From the IMG/VR virus record IMGVR_UViG_2721755643_000007: 57,277 bases of DNA; one strand, 5' to 3'. How positions within the stretch are numbered: the stretch's first letter is position 1; each line of letters begins with the position of its first letter. Both the position numbers and the translations under genes were made by a program. Below are positions 29,022 to 31,293 of the stretch, in pieces. Source of the DNA: a virus. Lineage: Duplodnaviria; Heunggongvirae; Uroviricota; Caudoviricetes. The notes under the pieces are model-generated. The model made no database searches. It was given only the letters and a program-made list of their open reading frames with translations, and was not told the DNA's origin.

Positions 29022-30263
29022 TCACACCACCTCTTTATTAAGCTCGATAACGTTGTTGTTAAATCCTGCTATCGTATTAAGGTAATTAACCCACATATTA
29101 AGCACCTCAAGTTTTTTCTTTATATGCCTGCTTTTATTGTAAACACCAGCAACCCCTTTCACTTTATGACCTAAAAGAAGTTCGACAATATAAGGATCCG
29201 CCCCCATATCATTAAGCGTAGTGGAAAATGTGCGCCTGAAATCATGTATGCACCACAAGCCATTAGTATCATGACCAAGACGCCTGCATATTCTGTTTGC
29301 AGCCCCTGTTATTGTCGCCCTTTGCAAAGCACAACCGACAACATAACCGCGATTTTTTGTTTCTGCGTAAAGATTAACGATCCATTGTTTTATTCCGTCA
29401 GGAACAGGCCTTACTATAGCCTCCTTGTTTTTGCTGTGCTCTTTTGGGACTGTCCATACCCAGTTTTTTAAATCCCATTCGTCCCAGGTGGATAGCCTCG
29501 CCTCCTGCTGTCGGCAACCAAACACCAGGCAGATAACCATTATTCTTCGGTTATATATTGATGACAGAGTTAGCAAATTATTACCGTAAGCATAAGACCA
29601 TACATCAGCGGTTTCATTGATATTAAGAACGCGATCCCTTATACCGGATGAGCGCCCGACATAACTTACGTTAATATCTCCAAAGGGATCGCACGCGATG
29701 TATTGCCTGACGCGACAAAAACGCAACGCCTGTTTGATATCAAGAAAAATTGCACCAGACATAACAGGCGCATTTTTTTTGATCCTGTCAAAGACGGTAA
29801 GCCATGTGTGTAATTTGCACTGTTCTATAGCCATATCACCGATATAGGGGAAGATATGCTTTTCAAATCGTTTTATTAAATATTCATGCTCTTTTCTGGC
29901 TGTTGTGGCGTGATTGTCGTACCAGTAAAACAGCGCATCCCTTACGGTCACTGGTTGCATAGTTTTTTCGGCAGCAAGTTTTATTTGCCTGCGGGGGTCC
30001 AGATTTTCAGCCAGCCATTCACGGCACTGATCACGCATGCGCCTGGCCGTTGCAAGAGACATGTCAGGATAGCGACCAAGTGTAAGCCATACCGGAGGGG
30101 ATTCCCTGCCACCAAGACGATAGTAAAAAACAAAGCTGATCCCCCCAACCATGCTTACACGCACAGACAACCCGCGCCCATCCGCTATTGTTTTTTGTTT
30201 GTCCTGCCGTTTTCCGACAAGACTCTTTAACAGTTTGTCACTGAGTTTGTTTTCAATAGCCAT
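29022..30263 (-). CDS. tyrosine integrase (P4-type, with N-terminal arm-binding domain)
   Basis: 413 aa; N-terminal DGRGLSVRV / YRLGG / LGRYPDMSLATAR motifs; C-terminal HDFRRTF ... LLGH ... VYNKS. Confidence 0.9.
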   Translation of the reverse strand: MAIENKLSDKLLKSLVGKRQDKQKTIADGRGLSVRVSMVGGISFVFYYRLGGRESPPVWLTLGRYPDMSLATARRMRDQCREWLAENLDPRRQIKLAAEKTMQPVTVRDALFYWYDNHATTARKEHEYLIKRFEKHIFPYIGDMAIEQCKLHTWLTVFDRIKKNAPVMSGAIFLDIKQALRFCRVRQYIACDPFGDINVSYVGRSSGIRDRVLNINETADVWSYAYGNNLLTLSSIYNRRIMVICLVFGCRQQEARLSTWDEWDLKNWVWTVPKEHSKNKEAIVRPVPDGIKQWIVNLYAETKNRGYVVGCALQRATITGAANRICRRLGHDTNGLWCIHDFRRTFSTTLNDMGADPYIVELLLGHKVKGVAGVYNKSRHIKKKLEVLNMWVNYLNTIAGFNNNVIELNKEVV

Positions 30264-30281
30264 TAAAAGCCCTCAAGAGAT

Positions 30282-30335
30282 TTGCAATACACACCCATCC
30301 CGATCGCCAATTTGCAATACACATTGCAATACACA
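30282..30335. repeat. three direct copies of TTGCAATACACA between int and the right junction, candidate arm-type sites
   Basis: Copies at 30282-30293, 30312-30323 and 30324-30335; same motif as at 19646-19670. Confidence 0.5.
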
Positions 30336-30411
30336 AAACCGCGAAAAACTGGAAGGGTGATGAACGGTCATCAAAAGCATGGAAAACGACATTCCAGACG
30401 CAGCAAGGGTT

Positions 30412-31293
30412 TCAGTGGAGTTGGCGAACGATGCGGGCAACTACGGTGAGATGATAGACATAAATCGCCTTCACAATGGCGCTCTGCAGCTGCGTGTTCT
30501 GCAGCGTGTCGAGCATCTTCATCTGCTCCATCACGCTGTAAAACACATTTGCACCGCGGGTCTGCCCGTCCTCCACGGGTTCAAAAACGTGAATGAACGA
30601 GGCGCGCCCGCCGGGTAACTCACGAGGTATCCATGTCCATTTCTGCGGCATCCAGCCAGGATACCCGTCCTCGCTGACGTAATATCCCAGCGCCGCACCG
30701 CTGTCATTAATCTGCACACCGGCACGGCAGTTCCGGCTGTCGCCGGTATTGTTCGGGTTGCTGATGCGCTTCGGGCTGACCATCCGGAACTGTGTCCGGA
30801 ACAGTCGCGACGGGCTGGTATCCCAGGTGGCCTGAACGAACAGTTCACCGTTAAAGGCGTGCATGGCCACACCTTCCCGAATCATCATGGTAAACGTGCG
30901 TTTTCGCTCAACGTCAATGCAGCAGCAGTCATCCTCGGCAAACTCTTTCCATGCCGCTTCAACCTCGCGGGAAAAGGCACGGGCGTCTTCCTCCCCGATG
31001 CCCAGATAGCGCCAGCTTGGGCGATGACTGAGCCGGAAAAAAGACCCGACGATATGATCCTGATGCAGCTGGATGGCGTTGGCGGCATAGCCGTTATTGC
31101 GTACCAGATCGTCTGCGCGGGCATTGCCACGGGTAAAGTTGGGCAGCAGGGCTGCATCCACACTTTCACCCGGTGGGTTCCACGCCCGCAACTGCCCACC
31201 AAATCCGCTGCCACCGCCGTGATAACCGGCATATTCACGCAGCGATGTCATGCCGTCCGGCCCCAGAAGGGTGGGAATGGTGGACGTTTTCAT
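30412..31293 (-). pseudogene. B: portal protein B, N-terminal fragment (about 277 portal codons plus 16 island-derived codons)
   Basis: [33 protein letters not shown]...QLQSAIVKA matches the lambda gpB N-terminus, then reads IYVYHLTVVARIVRQLH-stop from island sequence. Confidence 0.9.

Follow-up and report, generated by a model that had tools for sequence, protein, structure and literature searches.

The 57,277-nt stretch analyzed here (IMG/VR virus record IMGVR_UViG_2721755643_000007; hereafter, the window) carries a DLP12/lambda-like prophage whose portal gene B is interrupted by a second mobile element. The region in question is the left attachment junction (attL) of a helper-embedded phage-inducible chromosomal island (HE-PICI) of site group B:Phage_portal_2:241, lying inside the portal gene of its own helper. 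Coordinates refer to the whole window, in which the phage late genes and the island genes int and alpA occupy the minus strand. Annotations of helper open reading frames (ORFs) are those of L001, the locus of strain RMDEC364, which is collinear with the window and, insertion sequence (IS) insertions apart, 99.996-100% identical to it over the aligned stretches. From the packaging genes to alpA, the junction reads as follows.

33938..33393, minus strand: helper Nu1, an ORF annotated as DNA-packaging protein
33418..31493, minus strand: helper A, an ORF annotated as terminase large subunit
31496..31290, minus strand: helper W, an ORF annotated as head-tail joining protein
30464..31293, minus strand: 5′ fragment of portal gene B, codons 1-276, from the ORF and a reading of the strand; annotated as "phage portal protein, missing C-terminus"
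30464..30471, minus strand: attL crossover identity block AAGGCGAT, the same 8-mer at both island ends, given as "aaggcgat" in the supplement of Tommasini 2023
30313..30335, minus strand: doubled arm motif tgTGTATTGCaatgTGTATTGCa of the int-proximal arm, matching the HE-PICI-specific motif
30283..30293, minus strand: third TGTATTGC repeat, a single copy that precedes the int ATG by 20-30 nt
29022..30263, minus strand: island tyrosine integrase gene int, 413 aa (Pfam Arm-DNA-bind_3, Phage_int_M, Phage_integrase)
28763..29020, minus strand: alpA, 85 aa, encoding an activator and presumed excision factor (Pfam Phage_AlpA, E = 4.7e-14)

The initial annotation had placed the truncated portal gene (B′), the arm repeats, int, and alpA in this order on one strand, and both the ORF positions and a direct reading of the strand bear this out. 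It had also stated that B ends at 30412. This is correct for the ORF, which runs from 31293 to 30412 and encodes 293 aa, but not for portal homology, which ends at 30464. Residues 1-276 form the N-terminal half of a lambda-type portal protein; homology stops at the crossover block AAGGCGAT (30471..30464, read directly on the minus strand), and the last 16 codons of the ORF with their TGA (30414..30412) are island DNA unrelated to portal. Three TGTATTGC repeats lie in the spacer that precedes int, made up of the doubled copy at 30335..30313 and the single copy at 30293..30283, and a GAGGG ribosome-binding site for int lies at 30274..30270. The alpA start overlaps the int stop, and because the two genes abut, they form one operon.

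The other end of the island and the remainder of the portal gene lie some 11 kb farther along the same strand.

19574..30463, minus strand: island body, from the att blocks, Pfam matches of its ORFs, and the cos alignment
19566..19573, minus strand: right attachment site (attR) crossover identity block AAGGCGAT, identical to the attL 8-mer
19647..19669, minus strand: doubled arm motif cgTGTATTGCagtgTGTATTGCg of the far arm, from the strand reading
18794..19565, minus strand: 3′ fragment of portal gene B, an ORF that continues MYAATIES...

Counting one copy of the block, the island measures 10,898 bp (19566-30463) and splits the portal gene at codon 276/277. Deleting it in silico yields an in-frame protein of 533 aa that matches Pfam Phage_portal_2 end to end. 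The island supplies no replacement portal sequence: the tail on its side of the block is unrelated and stops after 16 codons. Residue 276 of the portal falls near profile position 241, given that residues 32-400 align to Phage_portal_2 positions 2-354. The TGTATTGC starts in the reconstructed attP are at 134/146 and 366/378, the block occupies 228-235, and an extra single copy lies at 408. The HE-PICI-specific doubled motif tgTGTATTGCantgTGTATTGCa was described once per attP arm, ∼81 bp from the center on the upstream side and 132 bp from it on the downstream side (Tommasini 2023). In the window, the edge-to-center distances of 78.5 and 134.5 bp sum to 213, as do the paper’s 81 and 132; the ∼2.5-bp offset of the center depends on how it is defined.

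Pfam searches of the 19 island ORFs identified Int, AlpA, Bro-N, a D5_N/DUF5906 primase, SSB, a gpE-like capsid protein (Phage_cap_E), a gpD-like protein (HDPD), a second AlpA, and a Nu1-like small terminase (Phage_Nu1), in the overall order Int/Bro/Replication/Late. The int, alpA, and primase genes are co-oriented with the interrupted portal gene (minus strand, as Nu1-A-W-B), and all island and late ORFs in the window are intact. A 77-bp island segment (21319-21395) is 91% identical to the helper cos region at 34083-34159. The element thus has what characterizes a Gram-negative PICI: a length of 10,898 bp, in the usual range of ∼10-15 kb; int, alpA, pri, and a cos/packaging gene; and neither tail nor lysis genes, with no Pfam match to tail or holin families among the 19 ORFs. 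Other identities were considered. A capsid-forming PICI or a defective second prophage was rejected, as the island lacks portal, large terminase, tail, and lysis genes. A P4-like satellite did not fit either: there were no Pfam matches to psu, delta, or sid and no Rfam match to C4 or isrK. Scanned against Rfam, the whole window gave no match at the gathering threshold, either to P4-type immunity RNAs or to another family, and a transfer RNA (tRNA) scan for a tRNA-type att site found none.

HE-PICIs have been cataloged as 491 elements that occupy 14 sites within nine cognates of lambda late genes, all co-oriented with the late gene (Tommasini, Mageeney & Williams 2023, NAR Genom Bioinform 5:lqad036; hereafter, Tommasini 2023), and we checked this co-orientation directly in three site groups. 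The supplement lists group B_Phage_portal_2_241 with the block "aaggcgat" and with members that include CP015912.1/4478746-4489644, CP028192, and CP031134 (Tommasini 2023). The same three genomes are among the best matches to the window junction, and the window int is 100% identical at the DNA level to that of CP015912 (Eco4028.11.B_Phage_portal_2_241), inside the cataloged interval. The window element is therefore another copy of a cataloged element, and the phenomenon was already known; for the window itself, the main value lies in its correct annotation. Its anatomy, family membership, and in-frame portal restoration are direct observations. At the protein level, Int is 53.6% identical to the integrase of the founding HE-PICI, Eco567.11capE (hereafter, 11capE; site group E:80, in capsid gene E of Escherichia coli NRG857c), and 49% identical to the A:246 integrase, clade membership being judged by identity. 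Among 5,426 complete E. coli genomes, the portal-int-alpA junction occurs in 60, from diverse hosts and at an identity of at least 99.4%; most of the window int occurs in 62, and matching portal sequence, a possible target, in more than 3,200. E. coli strains EC93, 210205630, and A5 are examples with an intact composite. The int DNA search did not reach the other E. coli site groups, whose integrases are <80% identical over short stretches.

Upstream of Nu1, the late operon of the helper is contiguous and co-oriented, running from quuD through the lysis genes and Nu1-A-W-B′ into int-alpA.

39109..39492, minus strand: quuD, a homolog of the antiterminator gene Q at the head of the late operon; an ORF annotated in L001 as "antitermination protein QuuD"

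The L001 annotations comprise quuD, an antisense ompC-like porin, essD, rrrD, an Rz-like lysis gene, nohD, terminase, and head genes. We looked for pR′/tR′ downstream of quuD and did not locate them with confidence. The ompC/nmpC-like porin gene stands antisense between quuD and the lysis genes (37838-38920), as in DLP12. An IS2 copy lies in the helper nin region between ren and emrE (∼44350-46050) and may affect Q expression and helper inducibility. Relatives of the composite carry insertions of their own: the RMDEC364 island has two ISEc60 copies in the primase gene and an ISCro1 next to attR (L001 25105-29467, 34148-36763), and strain E41 (NZ_CP069707) has an IS1 near int. Some lineages of the composite are thus decaying.

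We next consider what separates late transcription from int. The initial annotation had reported no obvious terminator between B′ and int, and our pattern scan of the minus strand from 30471 to 30263, which returned no terminator-like site, agrees. No hidden terminator or riboswitch-like structure was detected in the B′-int spacer, whose 241-nt sense RNA folded no better than shuffles (z = +0.16). There is likewise no terminator-like site before int in 11capE (E:80) or in the E. coli 042 element (A:246), both taken via the coordinates in the supplement of Tommasini 2023. In the attL of Asu31, a fis-PICI from the sister group, a copy of the fis terminator lies between core and int (supplement sequence, one member), suggesting that at least this one nonembedded relative insulates int from upstream transcription.

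Beyond alpA, the situation differs.

28726..28750, minus strand: intrinsic terminator after alpA, GCCCCUC-AUCAC-GAGGGGU + U6, from pattern scan and folding

This hairpin begins 12 nt past the alpA stop codon and folds with −16.1 kcal/mol (z = −2.3). The alpA homologs are trailed by terminators as well: 042 has two that are strong, and the hairpin of 11capE is weaker. The Bro-N start codon (28706) is only 26 nt past the alpA terminator (window 28706-28762), and because the two adjoin, Bro transcripts must either cross the terminator or start inside it; this placement suggests antitermination, by helper Q or an AlpA-type factor. In lambda, Q-modified RNA polymerase reads through both intrinsic and Rho-dependent terminators. 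The alpA terminator would thus not halt helper late transcription, and by the same logic, a terminator between B′ and int would not decide against read-through.

This arrangement points to helper late transcription reading through into int-alpA as the trigger of island excision. The idea is not new: Tommasini 2023 proposed, as a hypothesis, that helper late transcription runs into int. We infer that it is plausible and, with part of the evidence behind it, rather probable for the window element. In the lysogen, the helper late promoter would not be antiterminated, so that int-alpA would remain silent and the island would stay in place. On induction, QuuD-modified RNA polymerase would transcribe the lysis genes followed by Nu1-A-W-B′; traverse the 200 bp of the arm region to reach int and alpA; and continue past the alpA terminator through the remaining co-oriented island. 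Int together with AlpA, as activator and presumed directionality factor, would then excise the island at AAGGCGAT, rebuilding the in-frame portal gene and releasing a cos-bearing 10.9-kb satellite.

Several published and computed results bear on this model. For 11capE in E. coli NRG857c, qPCR and deep sequencing showed that the composite excises and then replicates, with satellite excision only at 2 h (Tommasini 2023), a delay consistent with late-gene coupling, though not proof of it. In EcCICFT073, int is required for excision, and expression of AlpA alone leads to excision and replication (Fillol-Salom et al. 2018). For the integrated state, we scanned for a sigma70-like int promoter using an uncurated position weight matrix (PWM); the best score was 6.3, compared with a window median of 6.9 for the best score per 500 nt, and no site stood above background.

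Other points weigh against read-through. The absence of a terminator over ∼200 nt is expected by chance (shuffles give ∼0.1 expected matches per 200 nt per strand) and is not significant alone; it gains meaning only through comparison with other elements. With IS2 in the nin region, the helper’s own inducibility is in doubt. A literature search for HE-PICI transcript data or for a Q-mutant or other genetic test of read-through found none. The remaining points speak for induction in trans of the kind seen in ordinary Gram-negative PICIs, whereby a helper early or late product would activate an island promoter that drives alpA (and int), and co-orientation would serve only to avoid head-on conflicts and to let late transcription extend to ′B-C-D-E and the tail genes. 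In ordinary Gram-negative PICIs, induction goes through helper-dependent activation of alpA, and in EcCICFT073, helpers switch on alpA in trans, with AlpA activating its own promoter (Fillol-Salom et al. 2018). Moreover, HE-PICIs that sit off-target in chromosomal genes or in truncated helpers must use the trans route, the cis trigger being unavailable there (Tommasini 2023). Inside int, a weak promoter-like sequence matches at 9/12 positions (29567..29539); an alpA promoter within int is possible, as is a weak int promoter missed by the PWM. However, int and alpA abut, leaving no intergenic room for a separate alpA promoter, no above-background promoter precedes int, and trans-induction leaves the repeated choice of late genes by this integrase clade unexplained. 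We therefore regard it as unlikely to be the explanation here, although the two routes are not mutually exclusive. That the arrangement is a relic without present regulatory role, a decaying prophage with a trapped island, would accord with IS2 in the helper nin region, with the IS insertions in the islands of close relatives (ISEc60 twice and ISCro1 in RMDEC364; IS1 in E41), and with the failure to recover virions from the 11capE composite (Tommasini 2023), but it is very improbable given that the island and late ORFs in the window are intact, the att blocks are perfect and restore the portal in frame, the junction is retained at ≥99.4% identity in ∼60 genomes from varied hosts, and the sister element 11capE excises precisely upon induction.

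If confirmed, read-through would explain the timing of excision without a dedicated sensor as well as the repeated evolution of late-gene specificity in one integrase clade. Helper-embedded satellites represent a parasite-host relation between two mobile elements that is wired in cis: the essential portal gene of the helper is held hostage until the satellite exits, and the cue to exit may come from the helper’s late transcript.

The reconstructed attP offers a possible reason for such dependence, in that it contains a promoter-like pair that neither junction of the integrated island preserves.

30451..30456, minus strand: candidate −10 element TATCAT of an attP-only promoter, predicted by PWM
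19576..19581, minus strand: candidate −35 element TTTTCA of the same promoter, predicted, separated from the −10 by 17 nt in the circular form of the island

With the core inside its 17-nt spacer, the window pair TTTTCA-17-TATCAT scores 9.4 in attP, compared with 0.5 for the same window in attL. We extended the comparison to nine site groups with unrelated cores, using the attL and attR sequences in the supplement of Tommasini 2023. The attP pairs scored as follows.

A:246, TTGAAA-17-TAACAT: 13.35
V:49, TTGAAA-17-TAACAT: 13.35
E:80, TTGACT-17-TAGCAT: 12.6
T:17, TTGCAA-17-TAAACT: 11.7
C:110 (Epi10), TTGCAT-17-TATCAT: 10.75
B:241, Eta10 and this window, TTTTCA-17-TATTAT and TTTTCA-17-TATCAT: 9.9 and 9.4
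A:132 (Kkt1), B:38, B:227, and C:110 (Eco38, Kcr4), weak pairs: 6.3-8.9

A geometry of TTGnnA-17 nt-TAnnAT is found in most of the nine groups. The attP score exceeded the attL score in all 14 of the 14 HE elements, and the attP of the fis-PICI control had no such match (3.95). Taking one member per group, Fisher’s combined p is ∼9e-8, a crude figure that comes from the uncurated PWM and from shuffles matched for base composition alone. The V:49 element Ana29 is an exception in that its attL keeps TTGACA-15-TAACAT (score 12.1), the TTGACA being supplied by the tail-tube gene. From these scores, we tentatively suggest that the HE-PICI int promoter may straddle the attP crossover, with the −35 element in the far arm and the −10 element toward int. 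Against this, the TTGCAA-like −35 resembles the arm motif and could be an Int-binding site. If the promoter is split in this way, integration would silence int-alpA in the lysogen and pass control to the Q-antiterminated late operon, and the promoter would be reassembled for integration when the island circularizes or enters a new cell. Cut from its own −35, int-alpA would depend on helper read-in. An int promoter at the core is not discussed by Tommasini 2023.

Further features of the island were recorded. Its 184-aa "small terminase" (20676-21230, minus strand) matches only the C-terminal half of Phage_Nu1 (profile 80-162); the N-terminal DNA-binding part differs from that of helper Nu1, and the cos-like segment lies just upstream. 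Together, the Nu1-like protein and the cos segment could constitute an Rpp-like packaging redirector. The second AlpA-family gene (127 aa; 21420-21803, minus strand; Phage_AlpA, E = 1.3e-8) belongs to the late zone of the island, where it is flanked by the gpD-like gene and the cos/Nu1-like module. Close to the far end of the island, 54-nt units are repeated three times in tandem (19981-20142), the later copies sharing 65-72% identity with the first, and a direct repeat of 24 nt occurs at 20158 and 20344. Any of these may serve as iterons or in regulation. A conserved counter-oriented gene of the YlcI/YnfO family runs antisense to the late direction in the Bro zone of the island (27489-27794, plus strand), beside the helper cos (34327-34560, plus strand), and in 11capE (L002 4425-4727).

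Among known systems, the window element is closest to Eco4028.11 (CP015912, B:Phage_portal_2:241), with which it shares int (100%), the block aaggcgat, the target codon, the orientation, and the doubled arm motif; the sizes are 10,898 and 10,899 bp, and there is no material difference. The IS insertions of some relatives are absent from the window copy. The founding element 11capE has a co-oriented E′-int-alpA arrangement in which int is preceded by no terminator and alpA is followed by a hairpin. Its Int and AlpA are 53.6 and 67% identical to those of the window, and farther along it shares the YlcI/YnfO antisense gene, the DUF4222 gene, and the primase gene. It differs in its target (E:Phage_cap_E:80) and core (AACCCAAGCA), and induction kinetics are available for no other HE-PICI. 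In E. coli 042 (L003 3061-4398), the RefSeq integrase of the A:246 element has a 38-aa N-terminal extension that is translated arm-repeat DNA ("CVLHCVLQ"); terminase/int fusion misannotations have been noted for the same A:246 elements (Tommasini 2023). EcCICFT073 and other Gram-negative PICIs have int-alpA-pri, cos packaging by lambdoid helpers, and AlpA as the inducing activator in common with the window island (Fillol-Salom et al. 2018). However, those islands occupy chromosomal genes, and their induction is exclusively in trans, whereas the window island lies inside the helper late operon.

Two broader comparisons concern the ends of the element and the gene that it splits. IS circles form promoters at their junctions. 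Tn916 carries a terminator that insulates it against read-in (PMC11658703). As in the HE-PICI, the element ends decide whether outside transcription enters, and circularization may assemble or split a promoter; unlike Tn916, the HE-PICI apparently invites read-in, and its proposed split promoter is a sequence-level prediction. Regulated gene integrity, or active lysogeny, is known from the comK-interrupting Listeria prophage and the Bacillus subtilis skin element. As in those systems, the portal gene is split without replacement and becomes functional only after precise excision. Here, however, the interrupted gene belongs to the helper phage, itself a mobile element, and the regulation benefits the satellite.

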